Assembly: GCA_937901925.1 (NCBI GenBank)
Contig: CALGTS010000058.1
Coordinates: 4,605 to 68,604 of the forward strand
Length of the DNA stretch: 64,000 bases
Direction of reading: 5' to 3'
Source of the DNA: an uncultured Bacteroidales bacterium
GTDB taxonomy: Bacteria > Bacteroidota > Bacteroidia > Bacteroidales > WCHB1-69
A program made the translations under genes and the position numbers. The notes under the pieces were generated by a model. It searched no databases, was not told where the DNA came from, and saw only the letters and a list, made by a program, of their open reading frames with translations. This document shows, piece by piece, positions 30,306-51,826 of the stretch. Numbering within the stretch: position 1 is the first letter of the stretch; the number at the start of each line of letters is the position of its first letter.

Positions 30306-30671
30306 TCACTCATAATATCTAAATCTTTCAAATTGGAAGACAACCTCTTTTTTCTGACCAGAACTATCCATATTAACAATGCGTTTGGTTGTTGAAGCAA
30401 CACAATTTATATTCCTATTTTTCAACCTCTTAACCAAAGAATATGCAAAAGTTTGCTCTCCCATCAAATGTACAACCACATTTTCTCTTTCTGCTATGAG
30501 TAGAATTTTTTGTAAATATTCATCAGCTAACTTTGAAATATAATTTTCATCGGCAGACTCGTCAATATGAGGGAATGGCATATCTACGACTTTGCCGAAA
30601 AGTTGTATTGCTGTTCTTTTTTGCTTCTCGCTCCAAATATTTGACGGATGATTCGTAAAATTAAGTAACAT
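30306..30671 (-). CDS. 121-aa orphan Rossmann-like CRISPR-linked protein, paralog of the N-terminal domain of helicase 44707..46755
   Basis: MLLNFTNHPSNIWSEKQ...VVHLMGEQTFAYSLVKRL...NCVASTTKR...FERFRYYE. The start ATG overlaps the upstream stop (TAATG at 30669-30673). ORF-track start 30704 trimmed. I cannot assign a named family from memory. Confidence 0.5.
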   Translation of the reverse strand: MLLNFTNHPSNIWSEKQKRTAIQLFGKVVDMPFPHIDESADENYISKLADEYLQKILLIAERENVVVHLMGEQTFAYSLVKRLKNRNINCVASTTKRIVNMDSSGQKKEVVFQFERFRYYE

Positions 30672-33048: not shown

Positions 33049-33052
33049 AAGC

Positions 33053-33631
33053 TTACATTTTTTCACACAACCTCAATGCCAACCCAGACCACAACTCAAA
33101 TTTTTCCAAATTTAGTTCTTTCGGATTTTCCCATTGGGGCAAACCGATTTCTGCGTCAAATCTCATCTGTCCCACTGCTACATTCACTCGAAAAACTACT
33201 CCGGTATGACAATGTCCTACCGATGTCTCCTCTTCGTTTATCATGCCCAACAACTCCACATCGCTATCATGCAAGGAAACGCCTACCTCCTCTCTAAACT
33301 CTCGCTTCAAACCTTGCAAAAGGGTGTTGTAAGGTGTTAACTGTTTATCTCCGTCTGTCACATGTCCGCCAATGCCTGCCGAACGGATTCCCTTCAATCG
33401 TTTTTCACTACCACATCTCTGATAGGTTAACACTTGCCCCTTTGCATTAAACACCAATGCATACGCTATCAATTGCTTGTATGTATAATCCTGCTCTAAA
33501 AATGCTCTTTTCTCAAAACACTGTGGCAATCTATTTAATTCCTCTACGGTTATTTGCCATGAGCACAAATTTAAATCAAATGCCAGCCGCATCTGCTCAA
33601 CTGGTACACATAATACATTTTCGTCTTTCAT
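33053..33631 (-). CDS. NUDIX hydrolase, translationally coupled to the CARF-adenosine deaminase
   Basis: 192 aa with a Nudix-box core ...GIGGHV...LLQGLKREFREEVGV. Its ATG overlaps the deaminase stop (ATGA at 33628-33631). Confidence 0.75.
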   Translation of the reverse strand: MKDENVLCVPVEQMRLAFDLNLCSWQITVEELNRLPQCFEKRAFLEQDYTYKQLIAYALVFNAKGQVLTYQRCGSEKRLKGIRSAGIGGHVTDGDKQLTPYNTLLQGLKREFREEVGVSLHDSDVELLGMINEEETSVGHCHTGVVFRVNVAVGQMRFDAEIGLPQWENPKELNLEKFELWSGLALRLCEKM

Positions 33632-36030: not shown

Positions 36031-37371
36031 TCATAACTCTTTCTCTAATATTCGCTCAATCTGTCCGACATAATAAAACGGAACATTAATCAACTTAAAT
36101 TGTTTTCCTTTGAAAGTTGTCACATTATCAACAGAATAAGGATTAGACCAAACTCTGATTGCGATGGCGTGCGGAGCTTTCTCCATAAAAAGATGCAACG
36201 ATTTGAGTTTAGCATTATGCCCAGACTTTACCTCTATTGGAACTACTAAATTTCTGAACTGATATAGAAAATCGACCTCGGCATCCGAGCCATCCTTATC
36301 TCTGCGCCAATAGTTATGACGAAGTGACACATCGTTGTCATACGCCACAAGCTCTTGGGCAACTATATGTTCTGCTATTCTACCTCTCCACACTTCACAT
36401 ATATCTTTTGCCGAAAAAACATCATCCTGAACCTTTGAGGCATAATTGACAATACCCGTATCCACCCACAACAATTTAGGGCGTTTCTTAAAATTAGGTA
36501 ATATCGGTATGTGAGTATCTGATGTGGGATAGACCAATTCTGTCAGCATGGCTTTTTCAATAATTTGGAAAGCCTCGCTCATTTCTCGCGACCGATAGTT
36601 AGAACCTCCAAAGCCTTCGAACGAAATGGTCTCTGCAGCGCACTGCCACCCATAAGTCATTATTGTACGTATCACCTTCACCATTGTTTTGCTACTTGTA
36701 TATTTCTCTACATCATCTTTGTAGGCTTGCAACAATGAATTGAACACGCTTGAACACGACAAGAGATCTCTTCGCTTTGCATATTGCATAATCACAGCAG
36801 GCATTCCGCCTACCAGAATATACTCGCGAAAAAGCTGCATTACTCGGTGATGTACAACAGAATCAACGTTGAAACTCGTTACAAGATTTCTATCAAAATC
36901 TTCGCCAATACCGTCCAAAAACTCCCAAAAAGAACATGGCCGTAAAGACATAAACTGCACTCGTCCTACAGGGAATGAAATTTTACGAACATCCATCACC
37001 GTCTCTAACAAAGAACCTGCCACTATTACATGAATATCCTTTGCCTCTTCGTAAAAATAGCGAAGAATTGCCACCGCTTTCTTAGAGTTTTGTATCTCAT
37101 CAATAAAAAGTAGCACAGAACCATCGATTTGTTCCTGTTTTTTATAGAAATAGATAGATTTCAACAATTGATGCACATCATCTGTCTGCTCAAACAATTC
37201 AGAATCTCGACTTCGTTCAAGATTAAGATACAAAAAAGTATCAAAATCCTTTGCAAACTCTTTCACCAAGGTTGTTTTACCAACTTGACGAACGCCCCTG
37301 ATTATTAAAGGTTTTCTATCTTCAGAACTTCTCCATTCTTTTAGTTTATTTATTGCCAATCTTCTTATCAT
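36031..37371 (-). CDS. AAA+ ATPase with C-terminal DUF4143 (PD-(D/E)xK-like) domain
   Basis: Walker A GVRQVGKTT, Walker B LLFIDEIQ, C-terminal DAEVDFLYQFRNLVVPIEVKSG. 446 aa. Confidence 0.8.
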   Translation of the reverse strand: MIRRLAINKLKEWRSSEDRKPLIIRGVRQVGKTTLVKEFAKDFDTFLYLNLERSRDSELFEQTDDVHQLLKSIYFYKKQEQIDGSVLLFIDEIQNSKKAVAILRYFYEEAKDIHVIVAGSLLETVMDVRKISFPVGRVQFMSLRPCSFWEFLDGIGEDFDRNLVTSFNVDSVVHHRVMQLFREYILVGGMPAVIMQYAKRRDLLSCSSVFNSLLQAYKDDVEKYTSSKTMVKVIRTIMTYGWQCAAETISFEGFGGSNYRSREMSEAFQIIEKAMLTELVYPTSDTHIPILPNFKKRPKLLWVDTGIVNYASKVQDDVFSAKDICEVWRGRIAEHIVAQELVAYDNDVSLRHNYWRRDKDGSDAEVDFLYQFRNLVVPIEVKSGHNAKLKSLHLFMEKAPHAIAIRVWSNPYSVDNVTTFKGKQFKLINVPFYYVGQIERILEKEL

Positions 37372-37641: not shown

Positions 37642-38766
37642 TTATTCCTGTAATGATAATTTTACAAATCCCAATAACTCACAAACATCATCAACTCTTC
37701 TTGTCTTTGGAAAATCATACTCACTATAGTTTTGGTTATTTGGTCGAGACACTGGAACTACAAGGCTTTCAAAATTATCTAAGTCTCTTGCCCATCCTCC
37801 AGTTATGAAGTTCCAACCAGAGCCATGACCTATGCGCAACACACACTCTTTCCCTTTGCCACAGTTCTGAGCTTCGTTCTTTATTGATTCAATCTTCTCC
37901 AAATAACACTCTACTTTATCTGAATCATCTCTATCTGACCGTTCTTTCCAATATTCCAATTCAAAATCTAATAAACGAATTGTGTGGTTATTAATTGCTT
38001 CGAATAAAGATTCATAGGATGACATAATATTAGGCAAATCGCCAATTGTAGACCATTTCTCTTTCGATTTATTATAACCTTCTACATTAAGCTTCATCTC
38101 AAACCTTGTTATATCTTCGGAAGGTAAAGCTTCAATCATTTGAGATTTACTTTTATCCCAAAAAATTTTTGATGTTCGCTCATTTATATTCACCATTCGC
38201 AAAGATACTGTATAACATTCCCCAAAATAAGCATCACCAACTTGCAGAAATCTGAAAACATCATTATTTGGGTCACTACCAAACAACTCCTTTTCTACCT
38301 TATTGGCATTTGTTTTTTTCTTACCATTGGCAGAAACATCTATTTTTCTTTCTGCATCATTGACATTCTCAGCAAGAGATGCAAGTATTGCTGTCCTAAT
38401 CGCTCCTTTTATCGAACTACCAGGTATGTACGGTTTACCCTGTCCGTTATGAATATGTTCCTTCAATGTGTCTCTCTCATGAGCTTCTGACCATTCCAGA
38501 ACTATACGTTTCGCATAATCTTCAACTTTAGCATTGGGAGCAAATCGTTTAACCACATTACCTGTGGATTCCTTACGTTCAATCGCCACCACCCAATCTT
38601 GAAGATGTTCTTCACCAATCAAATCCAACACTTTTTCAGGAGAAACTACCGCCAACACATAATTGTTGCCCATCTTTCCTTTCACAAAGTCAGAACCTAT
38701 TTGCAAAACCTCACCGGAGCCTATATGCACAGATGTCAAAGTTTTTATCTTAACTATTTTTTTCAT
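37642..38766 (-). CDS. csm5: Type III-A RAMP protein Csm5
   Basis: MKKIVKIKTLTSVHIGSGE... and KPYIPGSSIKGAIRTAI RAMP motifs. Last gene of the csm operon. ATGA overlap with the csm4 stop. ORF-track start 38841 trimmed. Confidence 0.8.
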   Translation of the reverse strand: MKKIVKIKTLTSVHIGSGEVLQIGSDFVKGKMGNNYVLAVVSPEKVLDLIGEEHLQDWVVAIERKESTGNVVKRFAPNAKVEDYAKRIVLEWSEAHERDTLKEHIHNGQGKPYIPGSSIKGAIRTAILASLAENVNDAERKIDVSANGKKKTNANKVEKELFGSDPNNDVFRFLQVGDAYFGECYTVSLRMVNINERTSKIFWDKSKSQMIEALPSEDITRFEMKLNVEGYNKSKEKWSTIGDLPNIMSSYESLFEAINNHTIRLLDFELEYWKERSDRDDSDKVECYLEKIESIKNEAQNCGKGKECVLRIGHGSGWNFITGGWARDLDNFESLVVPVSRPNNQNYSEYDFPKTRRVDDVCELLGFVKLSLQE

Positions 38767-39758
38767 ACTATATTCTTCTTTATAGGTACAACAAAAGGTT
38801 TCCCACTCCTGTAAATTGCATGCATCTTTTCGTTGTTCCACTCAGGCTTCAAGTTAACAATTGCACCTTCAAGATTTTTTGACGAAGTTATGACAGAGCC
38901 TACGTTAAACATATATACAGATTTTTTTCTCAAATGACGAAATCTTACCTCTTCACTACCCGAAATAAAACCTCCTCTAAGCAAAAGTTCATAACTCGAA
39001 TTTTCCAAATCTATACACTTCAACTCTTCTTCTGTTGGAACATATAAAGATAACAACATAAAGGAGTCCGCATCTTGCACATCCTGAACAATCTGCTTAT
39101 CAACTTTTTCTACCTCAAAACGTCCTCCTCCCACACTTCTGTCTGTCCCGATACCAATTTCTCCTAACTCCTCAAATAGAGTTTTCAATTCTATTTCAAG
39201 GTCATCTGGTGCGTCCAAGATACAATAAAGCCCCGCATTTTCACGAAAATAGGTCCAATCAAAAAAGAACGGTTCGGTCTTTCCATCTCCTCTCGGCACG
39301 CTCACTCGTTGATTCACTTGCGATTTTGAGGGCGAATCGAATTTCTCAAAAGCGCCTGCCGAAAGCAGATAATCTCCTTGCAACTGTTCTTCTTTAACTT
39401 CTATTTCTTTGCCTCTGATCAAATCTTGCCACAACAAGGAATCCACGAACTTCACCTTTTTCAGTTTTTTTCGATAAGCATGCTCTTCTTGACCTTTTAC
39501 ACGCACATTTAACCGACCTTGCACTTTTGGCAAAAAATAAAACTCGCCAAAATATGGGAAAGCAGAACTTACCACAAAAGACATCAAGAACGATTCTATA
39601 TCAGAAGATTTTCCCTTCTGAGCTCTTAAAGAAGCTAACGCAGACGACAAAGTATCGCTATGAAACACAGAAGAGGAGAAATCGTAATTCTCCTTTCCTG
39701 TACCGATATGCAGAGGAGTAAGATTCTTAAATTTTATTATAAATCTACTCATAATCAA
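38763..39758 (-). CDS. csm4: Type III-A Csm4 (Cas5-like RAMP)
   Basis: FKNLTPLHIGTGKENYDFSSSVFHSDTLSSALAS, a typical Csm4 N-terminus. Position between csm3 and csm5 with ATGA overlaps on both sides. Confidence 0.8.
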   Translation of the reverse strand: MIMSRFIIKFKNLTPLHIGTGKENYDFSSSVFHSDTLSSALASLRAQKGKSSDIESFLMSFVVSSAFPYFGEFYFLPKVQGRLNVRVKGQEEHAYRKKLKKVKFVDSLLWQDLIRGKEIEVKEEQLQGDYLLSAGAFEKFDSPSKSQVNQRVSVPRGDGKTEPFFFDWTYFRENAGLYCILDAPDDLEIELKTLFEELGEIGIGTDRSVGGGRFEVEKVDKQIVQDVQDADSFMLLSLYVPTEEELKCIDLENSSYELLLRGGFISGSEEVRFRHLRKKSVYMFNVGSVITSSKNLEGAIVNLKPEWNNEKMHAIYRSGKPFVVPIKKNIV

Positions 39759-40402
39759 TACTCTTTTACAACACCATTATCAATGTCAAGTCCTTCAAAC
39801 TTAATCTGACCATATCCACGTGAGCCATGACCACCCAAATAGTCGTCTTCTAACAATTCAATTGCCTGTTTAAGCGTCTTCTTCAGTTCTTTTTCATCTT
39901 CACCTTCAAATACATTCAACACCATGTTTAATTTAAACTTAGCCCCAGCCGGAACACGTTCAAACGTACGCGGATTTGCCTTAGCCGTTACTCTATCAAT
40001 TGCAACTTCCGTCTTACTTTCTGTATAAGGCAAGTCTGTATTACTAAAATCACAAGCATCAACATCCAACTCTGCATCTCTAACAATCAGACGAGATGGT
40101 CTGTTATTATCAGAACCTGTTGCAACACCAAACAACTTTCCAGAAACCGAATCTGGATCCTTACTTGGTCCTACTTTTCCTCTGTCAACTTCGACGCAAC
40201 CATTTGCAATCTCTACCAACGCACGCATCTTACCCTTCAAAGAACTGCCCGGAATATAGGGAATATTGTTAATAGGATTTCTAACCACAAACTTGTCCGG
40301 ACCTCCAATATTCAACGCTGCATTTGTACCTCCAATATGCAAACCTGTTTTTAGCACTATTGTGCCTGTATATAATATTTTCTTTACTAATTTCGTAGCC
40401 AT
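39755..40402 (-). CDS. csm3: Type III-A backbone RAMP Csm3 (Cas7), with Asn at the catalytic Asp position
   Basis: TGLHIGGTNAALNIGGPDKFVVRNPINNIPYIPGSSLKGKMRAL and C-terminal DDYLGGHGSRGYG. Collinear with S. epidermidis Csm3 as I recall it. Confidence 0.9.
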   Translation of the reverse strand: MATKLVKKILYTGTIVLKTGLHIGGTNAALNIGGPDKFVVRNPINNIPYIPGSSLKGKMRALVEIANGCVEVDRGKVGPSKDPDSVSGKLFGVATGSDNNRPSRLIVRDAELDVDACDFSNTDLPYTESKTEVAIDRVTAKANPRTFERVPAGAKFKLNMVLNVFEGEDEKELKKTLKQAIELLEDDYLGGHGSRGYGQIKFEGLDIDNGVVKEY

Positions 40403-40442
40403 ATTTTTACTTTTTATGATTTAACAAATTAAATAAAATAGA

Positions 40443-40928
40443 TTAATCTTTACCTCCGTTAGCTTTATGATAAGCCAAAACCGCCTCCATAAGATTGCAA
40501 AAATTCAAATAAGATTTCTGATTCGTAACATAAACAAAACACTCATCAAATAATTTTTTAAAAAGTTTGAGCCCTTCATTTTTTTCATCTCTTCCTAGTG
40601 CATAAGCAACTTTCGGTTTCAACAAATAAAAAGAGGACTTCTCCTTTTCAAATTCACCCATTTGAATTCTCTTTATTTCGCCGTACACATTACGAATTTT
40701 AGAGTTTGTAAGACCATTTTTTGCCATAAACTCGCCAACTTTTTCTGCAAAATCAACCAAATCTGGCGTTGCTCCATTTATAATCCACTCACGATTATAT
40801 GCAGGGTCTAATTTACTCCAAAACGTATCTGACTTAGACGATCTATCGCTTGAAGCAAAACCGCCCCCATTGTTACCTCCGTGAGGTCTGTCATTTCGTC
40901 TGTTTGTATTAAAATTCATATTACTCAT
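40443..40928 (-). CDS. csm2: Type III-A small subunit Csm2 (Cas11)
   Basis: 161 aa, helical, located between cas10 and csm3. Has a Gly/Asn-rich N-terminal extension. Confidence 0.7.
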   Translation of the reverse strand: MSNMNFNTNRRNDRPHGGNNGGGFASSDRSSKSDTFWSKLDPAYNREWIINGATPDLVDFAEKVGEFMAKNGLTNSKIRNVYGEIKRIQMGEFEKEKSSFYLLKPKVAYALGRDEKNEGLKLFKKLFDECFVYVTNQKSYLNFCNLMEAVLAYHKANGGKD

Positions 40929-40955
40929 AATATCTTTATTTAATTGATTAATACT

Positions 40956-43478
40956 CTATTTACTTCTATATTCTAACTCCGCCCAACGTGAAGCAAAAGC
41001 CCACAACTCAAGCGGATGATAATCTGAAACTATCGGTTCACCATTGAGTTTACCCTTGTTTTTGTCGCACACCTCTTTTATGCAATTGTCAATCATGTTA
41101 TTAACCTCCTCGCCCGCACTACGGGTCTTCATTCTGCTCAAATCATACGTCAACATCCAATATGTCTTCGTTCTGGTAATTTGATGTTTTTTCATTTCTG
41201 AATTTGCATAATGAGACATCACTTTTGAAATAAAAGACTTTGGCAATTTGTTTGAATCGAGCAACTTTACAATCTCTCCTTTCAGTTTCTCAACCGTTGT
41301 GAATTCCAAATCCCAATTCAACGGAAAATCCATAAAAGACAGTGCATTCTTATCAACTCCTTTTACAGAGTGACCTTTTGCCGCTTTCTCTTCTGTATCA
41401 CTCTCTTCCGCTCCTTTCATTATAGGATACGATGGAGAAATAATTGCGATTCCTCCAGACACAGAAAAGGCTTTGTTTTCACATGTAAACTCTCTAAAAT
41501 CCTCCTTTATTCGTTTTGCTATTTTTATTGTCACATCCCAACTTCCGACAACAAAGACATCATCACCTCCGCTATACACGATAAACGATTTCTCTGGAGC
41601 AACCTCTTTCCATATCGTATTAAGATAACCTGAGAAAAAGAAGTCGAAAGAACGGCTCAACGCCGCGTATCTCGACAGTGTTGCACGCTCAGACGGAATA
41701 CCTTGCTGGAAAATATGGCCTAGATTATCTACGTCCATCCTTAACACTCCCATTCTTGAAAAACGCCCTTCTTCATTTTTTGCGTCACACATCTCTTCAA
41801 AAGTGGAATTGTTAAACTCGTTTCCTCCATAAAAATCCAACGCATATATATTATTAATACCGTCCACTGTGTGCATAAAGTCACAATTTCCGTTCTTACC
41901 ATTCAGCGTAATTACCGTAACCTTGTCTGCCGAGGCTTTTAATTCCTCTTTCTTAGACTTCAAATCGTTATCATTTAGGAAATAATATGTAAAACCTAAT
42001 CCTAATGGCTCAATCTTAGTCATATTGCTCCAATATGACAAAGGTTCTCCATCTTTCACCACTAATAAATCTACATCTCTCAGTTTCTCTCCTATTTCTA
42101 TCTGTTTAGCTGTTGTTGGTTTCAGTATCAAAGAGTCTTTTTTTATCGGCTTTTCTGTTGCCAAAAACTCTTCTCCTGTTATAGTGTCTCTTTGTGCATC
42201 TCCTCCCTGCATCAATGGTTTAAAGAATTGCGAATAATTATCCTTAATCAACTGAGAAAACTTCGTATTCTTTTTTCGGTCTCTTAATTGGAACAACTTG
42301 CCCCAAACTTCTCCAAGCCCACCATTCTTGTGCATCAATGCATCCTCAGACAAACCTACACTATCTATCGCAACAAACAAAGATGTTCCGTGCGATTCAA
42401 ACAGCTTCTTTTCAATTGTCGAAACAGCCTCTTTAAGTTGTTCTTTTACATACTTAGTATTAGGAGCAAGAAGATAAAAGCCTCCGCCTGAATTATATAT
42501 AATATTTGCCTGAAACAAATTAAGTTGTTTCAACAAATACCTTACAACTGTATCAGATAACAATCTCAAATAGAACGACCTACCTTTCAGATTCTTACCT
42601 GCATATTTTGATACAATCTGGTATATATACGGCTGAATGCCACTAAAATCGGCTCCAACAAGCAAAAACGGCTCATCTCCTGCTTTTTCTCCTTTTTCAT
42701 AATCATACAAGCAAACAGAGAGCGCTGCAGTTGTTTTCAAATGATCATACAACGACACATCAGGGAAATTTATTGTACTTGCCGGAACACAACTCGTATA
42801 TTTCTGCAACAAATTCAACAATGTCTCAGCAAACGCTTTATAAGTATTTGCCTGTATAAATTTAAACTCTCCTATAAAAGCATTCCACAACGATAAATAA
42901 TCCGCCTCCTTCTCAAACTTTTCTTTGGGAAAACAATCTTTCGTCAGAGTGAGTTTTTCTATCGGTATATGTTGCCAATTTGTTTTACTCTCCAGCTCTG
43001 CATCTGACAATGATATTGTTTCCAATATCGACGTCATTCTTTTCTTCTTAAAAGAATCCCAACCGCTCTCTTCCTCATCTTGCGCATCTTTCATCGCAAC
43101 ATCAGAACTACGATCCATACCTGATGAAAGACAATCTGCCTTCTTAATCAATCTCCCCAAATCGGAAATTTGCTCTTCTGACAAATGATGTCCTGCTGCT
43201 AAATTAATAAGATTGTTCTTATCAGTCAAATCAGCAAAATTCGAACCTACAAGATTACGAAAAACAGCCATGTTATCTTCAATAAACTGGGCCGTCCATA
43301 ATACATGCTTATGAGAATAAGAACCTTTATAAAGAGGACAAAAAGTTGATTCTGTTTTGCAATATTCACTCAAAAACCGACTCTTGCTAACAGACCCCTT
43401 ATCCGCCCTCTGATAAAACTTACCGATATCATGCAACAGCGCCGCTAAATAAATATGTTCTCTAATTTTATCTTCCAT
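40956..43478 (-). CDS. cas10: Cas10/Csm1 with HD nuclease and cyclase (GGDD) domains
   Basis: 840 aa. N-terminal HD motif YLAALLHDIGKFY. Palm motif IVYSGGDDVFVVGSWD. Confidence 0.9.
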   Translation of the reverse strand: MEDKIREHIYLAALLHDIGKFYQRADKGSVSKSRFLSEYCKTESTFCPLYKGSYSHKHVLWTAQFIEDNMAVFRNLVGSNFADLTDKNNLINLAAGHHLSEEQISDLGRLIKKADCLSSGMDRSSDVAMKDAQDEEESGWDSFKKKRMTSILETISLSDAELESKTNWQHIPIEKLTLTKDCFPKEKFEKEADYLSLWNAFIGEFKFIQANTYKAFAETLLNLLQKYTSCVPASTINFPDVSLYDHLKTTAALSVCLYDYEKGEKAGDEPFLLVGADFSGIQPYIYQIVSKYAGKNLKGRSFYLRLLSDTVVRYLLKQLNLFQANIIYNSGGGFYLLAPNTKYVKEQLKEAVSTIEKKLFESHGTSLFVAIDSVGLSEDALMHKNGGLGEVWGKLFQLRDRKKNTKFSQLIKDNYSQFFKPLMQGGDAQRDTITGEEFLATEKPIKKDSLILKPTTAKQIEIGEKLRDVDLLVVKDGEPLSYWSNMTKIEPLGLGFTYYFLNDNDLKSKKEELKASADKVTVITLNGKNGNCDFMHTVDGINNIYALDFYGGNEFNNSTFEEMCDAKNEEGRFSRMGVLRMDVDNLGHIFQQGIPSERATLSRYAALSRSFDFFFSGYLNTIWKEVAPEKSFIVYSGGDDVFVVGSWDVTIKIAKRIKEDFREFTCENKAFSVSGGIAIISPSYPIMKGAEESDTEEKAAKGHSVKGVDKNALSFMDFPLNWDLEFTTVEKLKGEIVKLLDSNKLPKSFISKVMSHYANSEMKKHQITRTKTYWMLTYDLSRMKTRSAGEEVNNMIDNCIKEVCDKNKGKLNGEPIVSDYHPLELWAFASRWAELEYRSK

Positions 43479-43486
43479 ATTTTATA

Positions 43487-44179
43487 TCATTTTTTTACAT
43501 TTCTCTTCATCATTTTCACCATTCCCATGCCGAGGCTGGTACCTTTTCCCAGTCCGCAGAAGTCGGGTAAGGAGACGTTGGTCTTGAATTCCACGTCGAA
43601 ACTCATCATCTTGACACCCTTATAGAGTTCCAGACGGGGTTCCTCCATTTTTAAAATCTCACAAGTAATGTCTCGTTCAAGGCGTATGCCCAGACCTTTA
43701 CACATTGAGAGTATATTGCCCACCAAAATCCGCTGCAGGAACTCTGCCCGCGCAGCCAACCCTTCTAATTGTAAAAACTCATTGTAATTGTTAGAGTTAA
43801 AAGGTAACCATTTACGCAGGGTGTAACGAAAAGTGTCGTCCCACGCCTGCACTAAAATTTGCTTGGCATCTACACTGTCAATCTCAAAACGCTCCTGCTC
43901 TCGGTTGCCAATCTGCAAGTCGAAGTCGCACGACGAGAAGAACTCACCAATCGCCTCAACCCCATCACCAATACAAACTATTGCCGCCTTCCCACCAATC
44001 CGCTTATATTGTATCAGCGGATATGAGTAGCGCAAACCCTCTTCAGTATGACCACTAAAGAACTCATCGTGCGGAGTACCACAAACACGATCCAAAACTG
44101 CGCCACGGAAGAATCTAATCTCAGTTTGCCGTAATGGATTTTTAAATCTCACAACCAACAATTTAATTCTTGCACCCAT
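43487..44179 (-). CDS. cas6: Cas6-like crRNA endoribonuclease
   Basis: 230-aa RAMP-like protein with a C-terminal glycine-rich loop CGLGKGTSLGMGMV. First gene of the interference operon. Confidence 0.65.
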   Translation of the reverse strand: MGARIKLLVVRFKNPLRQTEIRFFRGAVLDRVCGTPHDEFFSGHTEEGLRYSYPLIQYKRIGGKAAIVCIGDGVEAIGEFFSSCDFDLQIGNREQERFEIDSVDAKQILVQAWDDTFRYTLRKWLPFNSNNYNEFLQLEGLAARAEFLQRILVGNILSMCKGLGIRLERDITCEILKMEEPRLELYKGVKMMSFDVEFKTNVSLPDFCGLGKGTSLGMGMVKMMKRNVKK

Positions 44180-44706: not shown

Positions 44707-46755
44707 ATGTTAATAAACTTCTCTAATTATCCTTCCCAAAAGTGGAGCGCCGAACAATTAGCTCAAGCAAAGAAACAATTTGGCGGCGTAACAGACCTAA
44801 AATTTCCCAATGTAAATCCCAATTGCACAGAATCTGATATTGCAAACCTGACCAATATCTTCTATCAGAAAATTCAGAAAATTGTAAAAAACATAAAAAG
44901 AACGGAAGAGATTACCGTTCTTATTATGGGCGAAAGCACGCTCACCTTTACCCTACTCACACGACTTTTAGGTTCAGGTATTCCTTGCGTGGCTTCTTGT
45001 TACCAAATCGATACAATTAAAAATGAGAATGGTAAAAAAGAGAGTATTAGGAAATTTGTAAAATTCAGATACTACAATAGTTATACTCAACCGAAGGCGG
45101 ATTCTAACATTATAAAAGCGGTTTGTCCCCAGCTGACACCTCCTATTGTAAAGGGAAAGATTGACCTTGATACATTAAAACAGGAGACAAGGCCGATCAA
45201 GAAGAGTCAGCAGCCACCTATTACTCCCCCTTTGCCCACTCTTCCTAAAAGCCTAAAAGATATAAAACTCACCGCCCATCAAAAAGAGGCGTTAGATAGT
45301 ATAAAGCGATTTATTAACGATGATAGTAAACGCATTTTTATTCTGAAGGGATTTGCGGGTACAGGAAAAACTACACTTACACGTTTTCTTTTAGAACATC
45401 TTAAAAAGGAGAAAATTGATGTTTCTCTTATGGCACCTACTGGACGAGCAGCCAAGATTCTATCTAACCTTAGCAATTATCCAGCGGCTACCATTCACTC
45501 TAGTATTTATAAGTTCAACGATTTAAACAAAGATTTACCAGAGGAAAAATTAGAGGAGTTAACTGCCGACCAAACTGGACAGTTGTATCTTACTTTCTAC
45601 CCTACTCGAACAACTTTTGATGATCAGTATAAAGGGAAAATCTATATTATTGATGAAGCCTCAATGATTTCTGACATAGAAGAGCTTTTGATATCGCAAG
45701 CAAAATATGGTAGTGGCAAGTTACTCACTGAACTATTGGAATATGACAAACACCCCAAAAGCAAATTTATCTTTATTGGAGACCCGTGTCAATTGCCACC
45801 CATACGCGGGCTTGAATCTCCCGCATTATCACCAAGTTACTTGCAAAAACATTTTAATTGCAGTGCCGATGAGTTCACGTTAACTGAAATTATGCGACAA
45901 GCAGGCGATAGCGACTTGATTATGGCGACAAAAAAAATCCGCGAACTCCGAGAAAATGCCCCTTTGGAAGAGGATTCATTTTCTGACTCCTGGGCACGAC
46001 TACCGTTAAGAGACTGCAAAGAAACCCATATTTATCCTGACATTGATTCTATGTTAGGAAAACATATCGAATTGATCAAAAGTAATGGCTATAATGATTC
46101 TATATTTATTTGCGGAAGCAATAGGAGGAGAAACCAATATTCTGCAAAAATCAGAAGAAGTTTGGGATTTTCCTCCCCACAAGTTGAAAAAGGCGATTTA
46201 CTGATGGTAATTCAAAACAATATACCTACGGGATTACTTAATGGTGATATGGTTGAGGTTCTTCGTGTCGATTCTCAACGCACCTATAGAGCCAATTGCA
46301 CATTTATCAATATTCACGTCAGAGAACTATTTACCCCAAAAGAACACAATGTACTACTAATGGAACAGCCCTTAAACCACAACTCTCTCAATATCAGCAC
46401 CGATATGCAAACAAACCTATTTATAGACTTTGCTCAAAGGATGAATAAAAATGGAATCACCCAAAATAAACATCCAAAAGAGTTTCAGAAAGCCTTAATG
46501 GAAGACCCCTATTTAAATGCTTTACGTTGCCACTACGGATACGCCATAACGTGCCATAAAGCGCAAGGGGGCGAATGGAACAATGTGTTTATTGATTTTG
46601 GACTAAATATAAAAAATCCAACCCAAGAGAAATACCAATGGATCTATACTGCAGTTACAAGAGCCAGAACGGGACTACACGTATTAGACAAACCTTATAT
46701 TTGCAACTTGGACGGAACCTTAGGAACTCCTTTTTACGAAACGATTTTTTTATAA
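44707..46755 (+). CDS. SF1 RecD/Dda-like helicase (AAA_30 + UvrD_C_2-like) with N-terminal orphan domain paralogous to ORF 30306..30671
   Basis: Residues 1-125 run MLINFSNYPSQKWSAEQ...IMGESTLTFTLLTRL...PCVASC...FVKFRYYN. A Pro-rich linker follows. Helicase motifs: GFAGTGKTT (Walker A), MAPTGRAAKIL, IYIIDEASMIS, FIFIGDPCQLPPI, GYAITCHKAQGGEW, YTAVTRAR. Confidence 0.8.
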   Translation: MLINFSNYPSQKWSAEQLAQAKKQFGGVTDLKFPNVNPNCTESDIANLTNIFYQKIQKIVKNIKRTEEITVLIMGESTLTFTLLTRLLGSGIPCVASCYQIDTIKNENGKKESIRKFVKFRYYNSYTQPKADSNIIKAVCPQLTPPIVKGKIDLDTLKQETRPIKKSQQPPITPPLPTLPKSLKDIKLTAHQKEALDSIKRFINDDSKRIFILKGFAGTGKTTLTRFLLEHLKKEKIDVSLMAPTGRAAKILSNLSNYPAATIHSSIYKFNDLNKDLPEEKLEELTADQTGQLYLTFYPTRTTFDDQYKGKIYIIDEASMISDIEELLISQAKYGSGKLLTELLEYDKHPKSKFIFIGDPCQLPPIRGLESPALSPSYLQKHFNCSADEFTLTEIMRQAGDSDLIMATKKIRELRENAPLEEDSFSDSWARLPLRDCKETHIYPDIDSMLGKHIELIKSNGYNDSIFICGSNRRRNQYSAKIRRSLGFSSPQVEKGDLLMVIQNNIPTGLLNGDMVEVLRVDSQRTYRANCTFINIHVRELFTPKEHNVLLMEQPLNHNSLNISTDMQTNLFIDFAQRMNKNGITQNKHPKEFQKALMEDPYLNALRCHYGYAITCHKAQGGEWNNVFIDFGLNIKNPTQEKYQWIYTAVTRARTGLHVLDKPYICNLDGTLGTPFYETIFL

Positions 46756-46764
46756 AAATAGATT

Positions 46765-47748
46765 ATGGAACTTATAATCAGCACTTTTGGCACATCACTC
46801 AACCGTGAAAATGAAGGTTTTGTCATCACTACAACAGAAGGAAGACAGCGCATTCCGGCAGAAGGAATTACCTCGATTCAAATTAGTCGTGGCGCGCAAA
46901 TCTCTTCCGATGCGGTAATGTTAGCAATGGAAAAAGAGATTGAGGTGCTATTTATGGATAAAAATGGCAATGTAACAGGCAGAATCTGGAGCCCCAAATA
47001 TGGTTCTGTTTCCACAATACGCAAAGGGCAGCTCAATTTCTCATTCTCTACAGAAGCTATCCGATGGATCAAAGAGGTTATCTGCCAAAAAATTGAAAAC
47101 CAACAAGCCCTGCTGCTCACTTTTGAGAGTTCTGACATTATGATTCAGAATCACGTTCAGAAATCGATACGCAGGCTAGAAGATTACCGCACGAAAGTTT
47201 CCACCATCAACGGAGAGGTAATCTCGGATATAGCCTCCACTTTAAGAGGTTGGGAGGGATTATCGTCGAAAATCTATTTTGAAACGCTAAACCTTTTTCT
47301 TCCAGAACAATACCGTTTTGAAAAAAGAAGTCAACATCCTGCTACCGATGTTGCAAATGCATTTCTGAACTACGGCTACGGCGTTCTATACGGGAAAGTA
47401 GAGGGCGCACTCATCAAAGCAGGCATTGACCCATATATTGGAGTTTTACACCGCGACGACTACAACCGCCCCGTATTGGTGTATGACGTCATCGAACTCT
47501 ATCGCGTTTGGGTTGATTATGTAGTTTTTACCCTTTTAACCCAAAATGTAATTACTGATGAATTCTATTCTGTACAATCAGATGGCTCCTATTGGTTAGA
47601 ATCTTTAGGAAGACGAGTACTGATACAATCGCTAAACGATTATTTGGAAGAAACTATTGAAGTAAATGGAAATAGTCGTTCTCGTGCCTATCAAATTTTT
47701 CTATATGCTCAGAAGCTAGCACAACAATTTAAAAAAGCAGAACGATGA
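46765..47748 (+). CDS. cas1: Cas1 integrase
   Basis: 327 aa. NAFLNYGYGVLYGKVEGALIKAGIDPYIGVLHRDDYNRPVLVYDVIELYR, the Cas1 C-terminal catalytic region. Confidence 0.9.
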   Translation: MELIISTFGTSLNRENEGFVITTTEGRQRIPAEGITSIQISRGAQISSDAVMLAMEKEIEVLFMDKNGNVTGRIWSPKYGSVSTIRKGQLNFSFSTEAIRWIKEVICQKIENQQALLLTFESSDIMIQNHVQKSIRRLEDYRTKVSTINGEVISDIASTLRGWEGLSSKIYFETLNLFLPEQYRFEKRSQHPATDVANAFLNYGYGVLYGKVEGALIKAGIDPYIGVLHRDDYNRPVLVYDVIELYRVWVDYVVFTLLTQNVITDEFYSVQSDGSYWLESLGRRVLIQSLNDYLEETIEVNGNSRSRAYQIFLYAQKLAQQFKKAER

Positions 47749-48761
47749 TACTATTTGGCAAAAACATAATTTCTTCGGGAGATGTTTTGACCAAAGTTCC
47801 TATTGTCAAAATCTTCCATGCGCTTAAAAATCCCAAAAGCGAAACGATTGCTCAAATTCGGCAACTCCGGATTGTTAGAAAGATAGATATCAAACGATAT
47901 AATACTCTCAAACGGCAACTTCCCTACTTCGTTTGTGGAATCTTCACACCACCACTTCGAAAAAGTGAAAACTTTGCCTACATTGAATATTTCATTCTAG
48001 ATATTGATAAAATTACCGAAAAAGGTCTCAGTGTTCAAGATTTACGCCAAAAGATAGAGAAAGATAATCGTGTTTTGCTCTGTTTCATTTCACCAAGTGA
48101 AGATGGTATTAAAATCCTATTCAAATTAAAAGAACGTTGCTACGACAAAGGTATTTTCTCGTTGTTTTACAAAACATTTGCCCAGCAATTTGCTCGACAA
48201 TACAACATTGAGCAGGTAATTGATAATCAAACTTGCGATGTAACGCGCGCTTGCTTTGTTAGCATTGACCCTCAAGCCTACTACAATCCTAATGCAGCAA
48301 CGATAGAAATTGAAAAATTCTTACAAATTAACAATCCTACAGAGATGTTTGATATCAAACATCAATTTGAAATTCAAGAAAAAGAACATAGAAAAGAGAT
48401 TGTAACTCCTGTTTCAGAAAAAGTTGATGTGGACGATGAGGTGATTCGGAATGTCAAGATGATTTTAAACCCCAAACTAGCACAGAAAGAGGAGAAAAAA
48501 GTATATATCCCCGAGCAGCTAACGGATATTATGGAAGAGTTGCAGAAATATATCACGGCAACAGGCATTCAGATTACAGAAATCATCAACATATCATACG
48601 GAAAAAAGATACGAATGAAATCACGCACCAAGCAGGCAGAGGTAAATGTTTTCTATGGAAAGAGAGGATTTTCTGTAGTAAAATCTCCACGAAGTGGAAC
48701 TAATGAAGAACTTAACGAACTGATGGCATCGCTTATACAATCATTTTTTGACCAAAACTAA
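47745..48761 (+). CDS. CRISPR-associated Prim-Pol (CAPP-like; archaeo-eukaryotic primase superfamily, BT4734/VirE-N-like)
   Basis: AEP-like motifs YFILDIDK (DxD), FISPSEDGIKILFKL and CDVTRACFVSIDPQAYYN. Its ATG overlaps the cas1 stop (ATGA), and its stop lies 4 nt before the cas2 ATG. Confidence 0.65.
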   Translation: MILFGKNIISSGDVLTKVPIVKIFHALKNPKSETIAQIRQLRIVRKIDIKRYNTLKRQLPYFVCGIFTPPLRKSENFAYIEYFILDIDKITEKGLSVQDLRQKIEKDNRVLLCFISPSEDGIKILFKLKERCYDKGIFSLFYKTFAQQFARQYNIEQVIDNQTCDVTRACFVSIDPQAYYNPNAATIEIEKFLQINNPTEMFDIKHQFEIQEKEHRKEIVTPVSEKVDVDDEVIRNVKMILNPKLAQKEEKKVYIPEQLTDIMEELQKYITATGIQITEIINISYGKKIRMKSRTKQAEVNVFYGKRGFSVVKSPRSGTNEELNELMASLIQSFFDQN

Positions 48762-48765
48762 CACA

Positions 48766-49257
48766 ATGCCGAGAAAAAAGAAACCGCCACTTACTTTTGT
48801 GGAGAAGATGAAAAAACTATATGCCGCAGGATTAAAACCGACGGAAGTTTCGGAGATTGCATCTGATGACATTGACTCCAACCAATCGTTACTTCCGTTA
48901 GAGAAAAGAGTTGAGCTATTATTTAATATTGTAAAGAATAAAAAAAGGGCAGCCACACAGATGTTATTTTTTGTAATGTATGATATAGAGAGCAATCGAG
49001 TTCGTCGGCAGATTGTCAAATATTTAGAGCGGCAAGGATGCACCCGGGTGCAGAAATCTATTTTTCTTGCAGACTTACCGATTTCGCAGTACGAACAGAT
49101 AAAATCGGATTTAGCGGAAGTGCAAGCTTGTTATGAAAACTTTGATAGTATTTTGGTAGTACCTATTTCAACTGATTACCTCAAAGCGATGAAAGTTATC
49201 GGGCAAAGCATCAATGTAGATGTAATTACCAAAAGTTCCAATACACTATTTTTCTAA
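48766..49257 (+). CDS. cas2: Cas2 with ~65-aa N-terminal extension
   Basis: Cas2 core MLFFVMYDIESNRVRRQIVKYLERQGCTRVQKSIFLADL. Preceded by MPRKKKPPLTFVEKMKKLYAAGLKPTEVSEIA... (HTH-like). The TTG at 48748 is an alternative start. Confidence 0.8.
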   Translation: MPRKKKPPLTFVEKMKKLYAAGLKPTEVSEIASDDIDSNQSLLPLEKRVELLFNIVKNKKRAATQMLFFVMYDIESNRVRRQIVKYLERQGCTRVQKSIFLADLPISQYEQIKSDLAEVQACYENFDSILVVPISTDYLKAMKVIGQSINVDVITKSSNTLFF

Positions 49258-49410
49258 AAAAAACGTTGCATTTGCAACAAAACAAAATATATTACGTTCT
49301 TTGCTTATTGAAAAAATAAAATTTAGGTACATAAAAAAGGGAAAAAACGAGAAAAAAAACGGATATTACACTTATAACACATTAATAATCAACAGGGTCT
49401 ATTTTTTGCT
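49258..49410 (+). promoter_or_regulatory. CRISPR leader
   Basis: AT-rich 153 nt between cas2 and the first intact repeat. The degenerate repeat lies at the opposite end of the array. Confidence 0.6.
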
Positions 49411-51826
49411 CTCCAAGAGCAACTTCCACTAAAATAAGGATTAAGACTTCTGCGCAAATCGTGATTGCTACGCTCGAATCCTTTACTCCAAGAGCAACTT
49501 CCACTAAAATAAGGATTAAGACCCCCACCATAAAAAACACTAAAAATGGAAAAAAACGAGAAGCTCCAAGAGCAACTTCCACTAAAATAAGGATTAAGAC
49601 TGTTCATTTCGTTTGCGTTTGCGGTGCTGTTTACAGCTCCAAGAGCAACTTCCACTAAAATAAGGATTAAGACCATTTAGTCCTAAGTATAATGTGTGTT
49701 TTTTCATAACCTCCAAGAGCAACTTCCACTAAAATAAGGATTAAGACTTCATAAAAATGGCACTATCCTTTACATCTTGTTGTCTCCAAGAGCAACTTCC
49801 ACTAAAATAAGGATTAAGACTCTTATAAATGTATTGTTCCGCATAGAATAGACACCTCCAAGAGCAACTTCCACTAAAATAAGGATTAAGACTTCAATTC
49901 TCAGTGTTTTTTCGAAAACAACTGTACCGTCTCCAAGAGCAACTTCCACTAAAATAAGGATTAAGACTTTTTTTATTGTTTTATTAAGGTTGATCACAGC
50001 AATTCTCCAAGAGCAACTTCCACTAAAATAAGGATTAAGACTGTTATTATTAAGGTCGATCACATTCATCTTGTAGTCTCCAAGAGCAACTTCCACTAAA
50101 ATAAGGATTAAGACCCACCTCTGCCAACGTGGAATAGAAAATGTTTTTCTTGCTCCAAGAGCAACTTCCACTAAAATAAGGATTAAGACTGTGAACTTAC
50201 TATAATTATTTTCATAATATAATACGACTCCAAGAGCAACTTCCACTAAAATAAGGATTAAGACTCTATCTCTCTTTCTATCAATCTTTTAGCCAAAGTC
50301 TCCAAGAGCAACTTCCACTAAAATAAGGATTAAGACAGGGTAAGCATTTACCACCCCTAATTTTATTAGTCTTCTCCAAGAGCAACTTCCACTAAAAAAA
50401 GGATTAAGACCTTACGGGAATTTCCCGAACAGACAGATTTTTCTGCCTCCAAGAGCAACTTCCACTAAAAAAAGGATTAAGACTTCGTAAGTTTTTTTAT
50501 CTGGCACTCCGCCATTACCTCCAAGAGCAACTTCCACTAAAAAAAGGATTAAGACTATGTCGTTATAAGTACAAAATTCAAAATCGTTTAAGCTCCAAGA
50601 GCAACTTCCACTAAAAAAAGGATTAAGACTGCTCGGTCAAAACCTCGTGCCAGCTTGGATCAGTATATTCTCCAAGAGCAACTTCCACTAAAATAAGGAT
50701 TAAGACGAGAAGTATATTTTAAAAAATCATTCATAAATTAATAAGGCTCCAAGAGCAACTTCCACTAAAATAAGGATTAAGACGTAACACACAAACGTCC
50801 ATCCTTGATGCTCCCTTGCAGACTCCAAGAGCAACTTCCACTAAAATAAGGATTAAGACCTATATTTTGATAAGTCATTCATATTAATATGGCAAACCCT
50901 CCAAGAGCAACTTCCACTAAAATAAGGATTAAGACGTTCAAATCTTTTGATGTAATAAACCACCTGCACAAGCCTCCAAGAGCAACTTCCACTAAAATAA
51001 GGATTAAGACATTGATTTTGCTATCGAATTGTTTGAAAATGTTACCTCCAAGAGCAACTTCCACTAAAATAAGGATTAAGACATTTCATAGTTACGATTT
51101 AATACCATAAAATCAAGCGTCTCCAAGAGCAACTTCCACTAAAATAAGGATTAAGACAAGCAATATTCGCCGTGCTGGCGAACTGATGCACCTTTTAACT
51201 CCAAGAGCAACTTCCACTAAAATAAGGATTAAGACGGGTCTATGTATGTTGTAAAGTCCTTAATCGGTAGTCTCCAAGAGCAACTTCCACTAAAACAAGG
51301 ATTAAGACGTTGTTATTATTGTTGTTTTTTTACACTGCAAAGATCTCCAAGAGCAACTTCCACTAAAATAAGGATTAAGACTATTATTTTTCTTTATATT
51401 TTTGATAAGTTCCGTCTTCTCCAAGAGCAACTTCCACTAAAATAAGGATTAAGACTTCATCAAACATATAACTCATATCAGTGATATCTCCAACCTCCAA
51501 GAGCAACTTCCACTAAAACAAGGATTAAGACTGCTTATATCGTCAGTTATATACCATCGACCCATCGCTCCAAGAGCAACTTCCACTAAAATAAGGATTA
51601 AGACCCTTGTATCCATAGGTTCTACCTTTAAATACGATAACTCCAAGAGCAACTTCCACTAAAACAAGGATTAAGACTCTTGCGTATTTGCATAATAATT
51701 TTTGAATATGTCGTCTCCAAGAGCAACTTCCATTAAAACAAGGATTAAGACAATAACAAATCTTTTTCGTTCTGTGTCATAATTAATGCCTCCAAGAGCA
51801 ACTTCCACTAAAATAGATATTTAGGA
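49411..51826 (+). CRISPR. CRISPR array: 33 repeats of 37 nt, 32 spacers of 35-41 nt
   Basis: Repeat is CTCCAAGAGCAACTTCCACTAAAATAAGGATTAAGAC. First repeat at 49411-49447. The last (51790-51826) is degenerate in its 3' half. The 3' octamer ATTAAGAC resembles the type III crRNA 5' tag. I enumerated all repeat starts by hand. Confidence 0.97.

Follow-up and report, generated by a model that had tools for sequence, protein, structure and literature searches.

The open reading frame (ORF) between cas1 and cas2 in the window (the whole 64,000-nucleotide stretch analyzed, from an uncultured Bacteroidales bacterium) is a gene of a known kind, encoding a CRISPR-associated primase-polymerase of class B (hereafter referred to as CAPP). 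Its product is very probably an orthologue of the characterized DbCAPP of Bacteroidales type III systems, a primase-polymerase that would be held on Cas1-Cas2, making prespacers and filling repeat gaps. The protein matched the NCBIfam equivalog NF040562 (PrimPol_Db, “CRISPR-associated primase-polymerase type B”) with 433.1 bits (E 7e-130, cutoff 200), and the match is full-length (aa 2-335 on profile positions 1-335 of 335). Given this score against a curated equivalog HMM and the existence of 1249 clusters of homologues, the ORF is a genuine gene and not a chance reading frame. Identity to the relatives sampled in species-representative genomes ranged from 42 to 65% (best 65%), and two near-identical clusters were found in metagenomes (86-99% identity). 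Among the 80 closest loci in species-representative genomes, almost all belong to Bacteroidales. The original prediction had described such genes as rarely annotated, but a curated equivalog exists and the name is already in public records: a 2021 publication described the family together with its operon and biochemistry, and the NCBI annotation pipeline now assigns the name automatically. As a discovery, the window CAPP matters little.

Organization of the locus

The features of the locus are listed in Table 1. The locus is of type III: CAPP lies between the cas1 and cas2 genes, and the opposite strand encodes csm1-5 and cas6; the type III-A operon is supported by TIGR02578 (612 bits), Cas6b_N/C and the Csm2-5 models.

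Table 1. Features of the CAPP locus, with positions in the window
Feature	Position	Strand	Size and support
Type III-A effector operon (cas6, cas10/csm1, csm2, csm3, csm4, csm5)	37642..44179	-	divergent
Fusion protein: Csx20/MJ1673-like domain, Pro-rich linker, SF1B RecD2-like helicase	44707..46755	+	682 aa
Csx20/MJ1673-like domain of the fusion	44707-45078	+	aa 1-124
SF1B RecD2-like helicase part of the fusion			aa 185-682; AAA_30, UvrD_C_2 and RecD2 matches
cas1	46765..47748	+	327 aa; PF01867 E 3e-67; TIGR00287 242 bits
CAPP class B gene	47745..48761	+	338 aa, ATG start; ORF list and NF040562 match
AEP (VirE_N/BT4734-like) catalytic domain	47745..48386	+	about aa 1-214; PF08800, Foldseek, invariant columns
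LDIDK			aa 85-89 of CAPP; motif I DxD
SPSEDGIKILFKL			aa 116-128 of CAPP
TRACFVSID			aa 167-175 of CAPP
C-terminal helix–four strands–helix domain, putatively TBP-like	48513..48758	+	aa 257-338; Pfam, AlphaFold, Foldseek
cas2	48766..49257	+	163 aa from ATG 48766; TIGR01573 46.5 bits over aa 66-163
Presumed CRISPR leader	49258..49410	+	between cas2 and first repeat; inference
CRISPR array	49411..51826	+	33 repeats of 37 nt (CTCCAAGAGCAACTTCCACTAAAATAAGGATTAAGAC); 32 spacers of 35-41 nt

Both gene junctions described in the original prediction were seen in the sequence. The CAPP start codon (ATG, 47745-47747) and the cas1 stop codon (TGA, 47746-47748) share an ATGA, and the CAPP stop codon (TAA, 48759-48761) is followed by four nucleotides (CACA) and then by the cas2 ATG at 48766. 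The cas2 ORF as computed reaches further 5', to a TTG at 48748; position 48766 is nonetheless the likely start, because in 37 related loci an ATG aligns with residue 1 of its product. The same 4-nt cas1/CAPP overlap was present in 18 of 81 related loci, and the gap between these two genes was no larger than 30 nt in 75 of the 81. The order cas1-CAPP-cas2 on one strand was general among the related loci (cas1 in 81 and cas2 in 80 of 82), the exceptions being contig ends. A terminator scan identified no plus-strand terminator-like sites within 44707-49257. The number of promoter-like sites (29, versus 22.7 ± 3.9 in shuffled sequence) was not above expectation, and the sigma-70 consensus used is unsuited to Bacteroidales. 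Cas2 carries an N-terminal extension of about 65 aa, for which profile searches gave no family match (aa 1-70); in each of the 80 related loci retaining cas2, the alignment of this extension starts at residues 1-10. As the degenerate terminal repeat marks the far end of the array, the leader side would adjoin cas2. The CAPP codons at 47902-47923 resemble the 5' end of the repeat over 22 nt (73-82% identity, family D5), a similarity treated as chance.

Catalytic and C-terminal domains of CAPP

The original prediction had read the ORF as a Prim-Pol, to be checked against BT4734 and VirE_N profiles, and this comparison did find an AEP domain, with PF08800 (BT4734-like_N) matching aa 55-180 (E 1.2e-18). 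In Foldseek searches of BFVD, the AlphaFold model retrieved phage VirE_N primases (E 2e-11 to 2.5e-8, prob 1.0), aligned over 189-214 columns with an rmsd of 3.5-4.9 A; identity was 22-24% across about 190-210 residues. Searches of the PDB with the full-length model yielded LigD PolDom (prob 0.84, E 0.035) and Prim-PolC (prob 0.60), with weak E-values, in a list dominated by irrelevant AMPK chains. At the level of predicted structure, the AEP fold of CAPP is settled by the viral library and not by the PDB. Sequence and profile searches of the PDB (full protein, 22-sequence family profile and C-terminal profile) gave only chance-level matches (E >0.05), to interleukin-2 and designed proteins; the PDB chains searched included the Marinitoga CAPP entries, which had no sequence-level match, and no class B CAPP structure has been solved that could be aligned. 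CAPP has a VirE_N/BT4734-like AEP domain and no second recognizable enzymatic domain, and profile searches detected no fusion of its Prim-Pol domain to a TPR, PriCT, RT or helicase domain.

The three AEP-type strings quoted in the original prediction were all located (Table 1), and the catalytic acidic residues, the loss of which on alignment would have counted against an AEP, are present: D86 and D88, forming the motif I DxD, are invariant in 22 family members. Together with the full-length NF040562 match and the profile and Foldseek results above, this bears out the Prim-Pol reading. The other invariant residues are S116-P117-x-E119-D120-G121-x-K123, D160, D165, R168 and D175. The canonical histidine of motif II (sxH) is absent: none of the family columns that are invariant or 90% conserved holds a histidine. 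From pattern matching, we take the expected position of this histidine to be occupied by the invariant K123 of S116-P-x-E-D-G121-x-K123. As the absence is family-wide and DbCAPP is active, it is evidently compatible with activity, and it constitutes a modest lead for CAPP workers. Three invariant residues, D160, D165 and D175, are candidates for the motif III acidic position. TRACFVSID had been put forward as an AEP motif; the string is present and its D175 is invariant, but this residue need not be the motif III aspartate, and D160 (VID...R168) appears from its sequence context to be the best fit to the usual hD-x7-R pattern.

The phage VirE primase-helicases are the nearest structural relatives of CAPP, and class B relatives also exist outside CRISPR loci, in mobile elements (PMC8211822), as would be expected if CAPP were a leftover replication primase of such an element, or a non-catalytic scaffold, performing no DNA synthesis for adaptation. 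This is most improbable, given that CAPP keeps its place between cas1 and cas2 in about 80 loci of different species whose proteins are 42-65% identical, that every candidate catalytic residue is invariant, and that the orthologue DbCAPP is active and binds Cas1 and Cas2.

According to the original prediction, the C-terminal ~130 aa had no recognizable motif. They were found instead to include a compact domain, modeled as a helix, four strands and a helix and apparently of the TBP-like/RnlA-N type, preceded by a linker (aa ~219-256) modeled with low confidence. A domain-only AlphaFold model of aa 257-338 had a pLDDT of 90, and RnlA was its top match in the PDB (Foldseek TM 0.52-0.54, rmsd 2.6-2.8 A, prob 1.0, but E only 5e-3 to 1e-2), with KA1/AMPK-type domains scoring nearly as high. 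Over about 80 superposed residues, the predicted topology of the CAPP C-terminus resembles that of the N-terminal domain of RnlA (PDB 6Y2Q), and it also resembles that of TBP-TOTE. The Pfam family TBP-TOTE (PF22721) matched the CAPP C-terminus with an E-value of 2.9e-4 and 20.8 bits, below the gathering score of 27, and was matched by six of the 22 family members at E 0.01 or better (best E 2.5e-5). With moderate confidence, the nearest counterparts of the modeled C-terminal ~80 aa are TBP-TOTE and the TBP-like domain of RnlA. This domain is probably an accessory module binding nucleic acid or a partner, and its fold assignment is a further modest lead for CAPP workers.

The upstream helicase and its Csx20-like domain

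The original prediction had also linked CAPP to a helicase, as parts of a primase-helicase machine. An SF1B RecD2-like helicase is indeed encoded upstream, with a Walker A motif (GTGKT) and DEAS in its translation, but the link is not universal and had already been published (PMC8211822). Among the 63 related loci with enough upstream DNA, a helicase lay directly upstream in only 26; 19 had a Csx20-like gene but no helicase and 18 had neither, ruling out helicase and CAPP as an obligate pair. The helicase is therefore not essential to the CAPP mechanism, being absent from many loci. A primase-helicase machine would here be an analogy only.

In the window, the helicase is fused to an N-terminal domain homologous to stand-alone MJ1673 proteins (Csx20, NF040559; Pfam MJ1673, PF27247; E 7e-27 and 9e-34), which have 113-131 aa and whose genes precede cas1 in other CAPP_B loci. 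This domain is 37-42% identical to the stand-alone proteins, and the helicase part shares 51% identity with a stand-alone helicase of 499 aa. A frameshift or assembly artefact was rejected as the source of the fusion, as independent assemblies encode proteins 84% and 76% identical with the same fusion and operon; the fusion is lineage-specific. Csx20 is a ring nuclease that degrades cA4. In the window, the domain is fused to the helicase and lacks H8, H72 and R101, which are present in all of 56 stand-alone homologues and are replaced here (H8Y, H72L and R101I). The match of the domain to NF040559 reached only 20.5 bits, under the cutoff of 70. A speculative scenario, which we consider improbable, is that the Cas1-associated RecD-like helicase of this lineage captured the neighboring Csx20-like (CARF-related) ring-nuclease gene as an N-terminal domain, which then lost its family-invariant histidines. 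If this domain could bind cA4 without cleaving it, the cA4 interference signal would turn on the adaptation helicase and hence the supply of single-stranded DNA to CAPP and Cas1-Cas2, and type III systems would gain a signal-coupled, “primed-like” spacer acquisition. An equally speculative and independent idea is that CAPP_B uses its TBP-like C-terminal domain in place of the PriCT/PriL-type initiation module of other primases. The lineage-specific fusion, with its degraded candidate active site, is a modest lead for CAPP and ring-nuclease workers.

Proposed function and comparison with known systems

The operon RecD-like helicase–cas1–CAPP–cas2 has already been described (Zabrady 2021, Nat Commun, PMC8211822). 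DbCAPP has polymerase and GTP-initiated primase activity with a preference for DNA templates, its D86A/D88A (AxA) mutant is dead, and in yeast two-hybrid assays DbCAPP binds DbCas1 and DbCas2, and DbCas1 binds DbRecD (PMC8211822). By orthology, the window CAPP would be a DNA-dependent primase, starting with a purine ribonucleotide (GTP) and continuing with dNTPs, and a DNA-dependent DNA polymerase whose metal site is D86/D88. Its gene would form one transcription unit with those of the RecD-like helicase, Cas1 and Cas2, immediately preceding the leader and array, and the protein would be held on the Cas1-Cas2 integrase. Its most likely job would be the conversion of single-stranded invader DNA into short duplex prespacers for integration by Cas1-Cas2; the Cas1-bound helicase, where present, may supply the single-stranded DNA. 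After integration, CAPP may also fill the single-stranded repeat gaps at the leader-proximal repeat. The in vivo roles of CAPPs in spacer acquisition are models, termed prospective by their authors (PMC8211822). For prespacer synthesis versus integration-site repair by CAPPs in vivo, the window is no more testable than the Db system.

RNA is targeted by type III systems. Certain class A CAPPs carry a fused RT domain (PMC8211822), raising the idea that CAPP supports spacer acquisition from RNA, in place of the reverse transcriptase of RT-Cas1 systems. DbCAPP and MpCAPP are, however, far weaker on RNA than on DNA templates (PMC8211822), and profile searches identified no RT domain in the window CAPP, making such a role very unlikely. 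A possible though less probable reading than the dual role proposed above is that CAPP acts only after integration, as a gap-filling, strand-displacing polymerase completing the repeat duplication, with no synthesis of prespacers. Each Cas1-Cas2 integration leaves two single-stranded repeat gaps needing a polymerase. CAPPs show strand-displacement synthesis and have been proposed by the authors for this role (PMC8211822, Fig. 9d), and the tight cas1-CAPP-cas2 linkage would suit an enzyme acting on an integration intermediate. Nevertheless, DbCAPP retains primase activity with a defined initiation preference, for which gap filling has no need because 3'-OH ends are already present, and host polymerases suffice for most CRISPR systems. 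Gap filling is, moreover, compatible with prespacer synthesis, the two roles not being mutually exclusive.

Of the known systems, the phage VirE-type primase-helicases (such as Cellulophaga phage phiST M4SL79) share the fold of their primase domain with the window CAPP, but they are proteins of 600-800 aa, annotated as primase/helicases, with a helicase in the same chain, whereas CAPP has no helicase domain. The class A CAPPs MpCAPP and MsCAPP from Marinitoga (PDB 7P9J, Prim-Pol domain) are also AEP primase-polymerases at type III cas1-cas2 loci, and GTP-initiated DNA priming is common to this class and to class B (DbCAPP). Class A nevertheless forms a separate sequence clade, the PSI-BLAST sets of the authors having no intersection (PMC8211822), and its members dimerize and carry a TPR domain at the N-terminus and a PriCT-like domain at the C-terminus; profile searches detected neither TPR nor PriCT in the window CAPP. 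The closest likeness is to DbCAPP (Dysgonamonadaceae bacterium WP_101486965.1, class CAPP_B), as judged from the NF040562 profile and the published description; the species differs and the helicase of the window carries the fused Csx20-like domain, but no functional difference between the two CAPPs is evident. The two proteins are of nearly the same length (337 aa for DbCAPP and 338 aa here), and in both a small C-terminal region follows the VirE_N AEP domain, the catalytic residues D86 and D88 have identical numbering, and the gene lies between cas1 and cas2 in a type III locus, downstream of a RecD-like helicase gene.

Family assignment and active site

The CRISPR-associated primase-polymerase (CAPP) of the window occupies the usual genomic setting of its family, which is already known, has been curated and has been characterised biochemically. 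The protein matched the NCBIfam equivalog NF040562 ("PrimPol_Db, CRISPR-associated primase-polymerase type B") over the whole profile (aa 2-335 aligned to positions 1-335 of 335) with 433 bits, the curated cutoff being 200. The name "CRISPR-associated primase-polymerase type B" is already in use in public records, and the view of these genes as rarely annotated is outdated. Zabrady et al. (Nat Commun 2021; PMC8211822), who defined CAPPs, recognised a class A (Marinitoga type) and a class B (CAPP_B). The only domain discernible in class B proteins is the catalytic VirE_N domain, and these proteins are found mostly in type III operons, almost exclusively in Bacteroidetes (PMC8211822). The gene for the model enzyme of the class, DbCAPP (337 aa; Dysgonamonadaceae bacterium, WP_101486965.1), lies between cas1 and cas2; the enzyme is a primase and DNA-dependent DNA polymerase that primes with GTP first and then dNTPs, favours DNA over RNA templates, and is inactivated by D86A/D88A (PMC8211822).

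A BT4734-like_N (formerly VirE_N) AEP domain was detected at aa 55-180 of the window CAPP (Pfam, E 1.2e-18). A search for PDB chains related to the protein by sequence detected none. The protein was modelled with AlphaFold2 from 22 family members (mean pLDDT 82). The first ~190-214 residues of the model resembled the structures predicted for VirE-type primase-helicases of phages (prob 1.0, E 2e-11 to 2.5e-8, rmsd 3.5-4.9 Å), and the full-length model gave weak AEP matches to solved structures (LigD polymerase domain, prob 0.84; Prim-PolC, prob 0.60). The Prim-Pol (AEP) identity put forward in the original prediction therefore stands: the AEP domain and fold were found, as were the catalytic acids.

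The three peptide strings on which this identity had been based lie at aa 85-89, 116-128 and 167-175. The residues invariant in the alignment of 22 family members (22/22) were D86 and D88, both present in DbCAPP with the same numbering; S116, P117, E119, D120, G121 and K123; and D160, D165, R168 and D175. No histidine in this alignment was invariant, or even 90% conserved, indicating that the whole class lacks the histidine typical of AEP motif II. The usual pattern of AEP motif II is S-x-x-G-x-H, and we take the place of its histidine in class B (aa 116-123) to be occupied by the invariant K123. As DbCAPP is active, this absence is a property of the family rather than a defect of the window protein. 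The residue previously assigned to motif III is D175, the Asp of "VSID"; this motif commonly reads hD-x7-R, a pattern to which D160 (VID160...R168), a candidate from sequence, appears to conform better. The word "motif" does not occur in the main text of the 2021 CAPP paper (PMC8211822).

The region at aa ~220-337 has been described as "a diverse smaller C-terminus", with no fold assignment (PMC8211822). In our model, aa 219-256 form a low-confidence linker, and aa 257-338 a helix, four antiparallel strands and a helix; modelled by itself, this domain reached a pLDDT of 90. Two Pfam families matched the region below gathering, TBP-TOTE (PF22721, E 2.9e-4) and RnlA_toxin_N (E 0.018). TBP-TOTE was also matched at E ≤0.01 by 6/22 relatives (best 2.5e-5), and appears in the precomputed annotation of three homologues. 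Foldseek ranked E. coli RnlA first (TM 0.52-0.54, rmsd 2.6-2.8 Å over ~80 residues, prob 1.0), with a modest E value of 5e-3 to 1e-2 and KA1/AMPK-type domains nearly as good. We consider the domain, with moderate confidence, to be TBP-like; it would bind nucleic acid or a partner.

The cas1-CAPP-cas2 unit and its array

The position and junctions of the gene had been read correctly: its ATG overlaps the cas1 stop codon as ATGA, and four nucleotides (CACA) separate its TAA from the cas2 ATG (see table). A mechanical ORF list begins cas2 at TTG 48748, but the start is likely to be 48766, because residue 1 of the product from that ATG aligns with ATG in 37 related loci. No terminator-like site was found on the plus strand between 44707 and 49257.

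Features of the locus
Feature	Position (strand)	Description
Three tandem paralogues	29049-30212, 30671-31906, 31909-33066 (all -)	Card1-type CARF and Card1-like endonuclease domains (Can2/Card1 family)
NUDIX hydrolase gene	33053-33631 (-)	directly after Cad1-like gene, 4-nt overlap
Cad1-like gene	33628-35664 (-)	678 aa; CARF-like (Cas_NE0113) and adenosine deaminase domains
AAA_14/DUF4143 ATPase gene	36031-37371 (-)	between csm5 and CARF effector genes
cas6, cas10/csm1, csm2-5	opposite strand	type III-A effector module; profile matches
Helicase fusion	44707-46755 (+)	682 aa, upstream of cas1; SF1B RecD2-type helicase domains, profile matches
Csx20/MJ1673-like domain	44707-45078 (+)	N-terminal, joined to helicase by Pro-rich linker
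cas1	stop TGA 47746-47748	adjoins CAPP upstream; TIGR00287, 242 bits
CAPP	47745-48761 (+)	338 aa; ATG 47745-47747, TAA 48759-48761
cas2	ATG 48766	adjoins CAPP downstream; TIGR01573
Cas2 N-terminal extension	48766-48960 (+)	~65 aa, no Pfam or NCBIfam match
Presumed leader		153 nt, after cas2, before array
CRISPR array	49411-51826	33 repeats, 37 nt each
Repeat variants	50374-50659, 51272-51826 (+)	inside array

The homologue search with the window CAPP yielded 1249 clusters, and a one-genome-per-species scan found a relative in 257 species, the best 80 of which were nearly all Bacteroidales, with ≤65% identity to the window protein. Synteny was assessed in 82 loci collected by tblastn with the window proteins (one obvious duplicate removed, otherwise not de-replicated). 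Same-strand cas1 lay directly upstream of CAPP in 81/82 loci and cas2 directly downstream in 80/82, the loci lacking either neighbour being contig ends. The cas1-CAPP gap was ≤30 nt in 75/81 loci, 18 of the 81 having the ATGA overlap. The gene is thus an integral part of the adaptation operon, as had been proposed; this fixed synteny and the invariant active site disfavour the alternative that CAPP is an idle mobile-element relic. The Cas2 extension is also conserved (alignment beginning at residues 1-10 in 80/80 CAPP_B loci retaining cas2), and CAPP or Cas1 may dock on it.

The helicase is distributed more patchily. Upstream DNA of at least 3.4 kb was available for 63 loci: 26 had a Csx20-like gene and then a helicase directly upstream of cas1, 19 a Csx20-like gene without helicase, and 18 neither gene; none had the helicase without the Csx20-like gene. 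In one locus (L002), the helicase is downstream of cas2. Yeast two-hybrid assays showed contacts of DbCAPP with DbCas1 and DbCas2, and of DbCas1 with the RecD-like helicase of the operon (PMC8211822). The CAPP concept of the original prediction, including the helicase partner, therefore coincides with the published picture of operon, activity and contacts. Co-occurrence with the helicase is nevertheless not universal, and the helicase is better viewed as a frequent accessory to the cas1-CAPP-cas2 unit.

The array end far from cas2 holds the most degenerate repeat (6 mismatches in the terminal repeat). Four repeats in a row carry one substitution (AAAATAAGG to AAAAAAAGG), with single substitutions further along the array. 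This variation and the degenerate terminal repeat fit leader-proximal growth from the cas2 side.

Helicase fusion and neighbouring effectors

The first 124 residues of the window helicase displayed 37-42% identity to stand-alone MJ1673 (Pfam) proteins of 113-131 aa (E 7e-27 and 9e-34), whose genes precede cas1 or the helicase in other CAPP_B loci. Matches to NCBIfam Csx20 were all below cutoff (E 2e-8 for stand-alone proteins, 5e-4 for the window domain). Ring-nuclease activity of Csx20 on cA4 has been confirmed by experiment; the ring-nuclease survey left out proteins >250 aa and has no mention of helicases (bioRxiv 10.1101/2024.09.24.614671). The two genes are separate ORFs in 33/33 other loci in which they are adjacent, and the fusion was present in only three of the best 120 helicase homologue clusters (76-97% identity to the window protein). 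In two of the fusion clusters, which stem from independent assemblies, the operon is organised as in the window, down to the 4-nt overlap and the 4-nt gap, so the fusion is real and lineage-specific.

Walker A (GTGKT) and the DEAS box are intact in the window helicase. Its fused domain keeps 19/25 positions that are ≥90% conserved in 56 stand-alone homologues, but H8, H72 and R101, each of them 100% conserved in those homologues, are replaced by Y, L and I, respectively. Both histidines are present in the 76%-identical fusion of another locus (L085), indicating that the fusion predates their loss. The domain may sense cA4, may still be an enzyme or may be a dead remnant; we think it improbable that the fusion and lost residues underlie a cA4-sensing adaptation helicase.

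The 678-aa protein shares the architecture of Cad1, a cOA-activated ATP-to-ITP deaminase (PMC11645235); counting its gene, the locus has four cOA-responsive effectors. A gene with the same AAA_14/DUF4143 domains as the window ATPase adjoins csm5 in two related loci (L001 and L084), and this type III-A variant may have the ATPase as a conserved accessory.

Possible role in adaptation

Orthology, intact candidate catalytic residues and operon structure are established for the window CAPP; a search of the literature up to 2026 found no in vivo evidence for any CAPP. Held by Cas1-Cas2, CAPP would convert ssDNA into duplex prespacers, the ssDNA being supplied by the 5'-3' helicase or by the nucleolytic activity of the Card1/Can2-like effectors of the locus; Can2 nicking has been proposed as a source of CAPP substrates (PMC8211822). 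CAPP might also fill the repeat gaps left beside the leader after integration, and that it only fills gaps is a serious alternative to prespacer synthesis. A reverse transcriptase-like role is disfavoured by the weak activity on RNA templates.

A primase-helicase machine at the window locus is best regarded as an analogy, in which the published contacts of Cas1 would link the two proteins. Structurally, the CAPP primase domain is closest to long phage proteins annotated as VirE primase/helicases, whereas the helicase of the window operon is of the SF1B RecD2 type.
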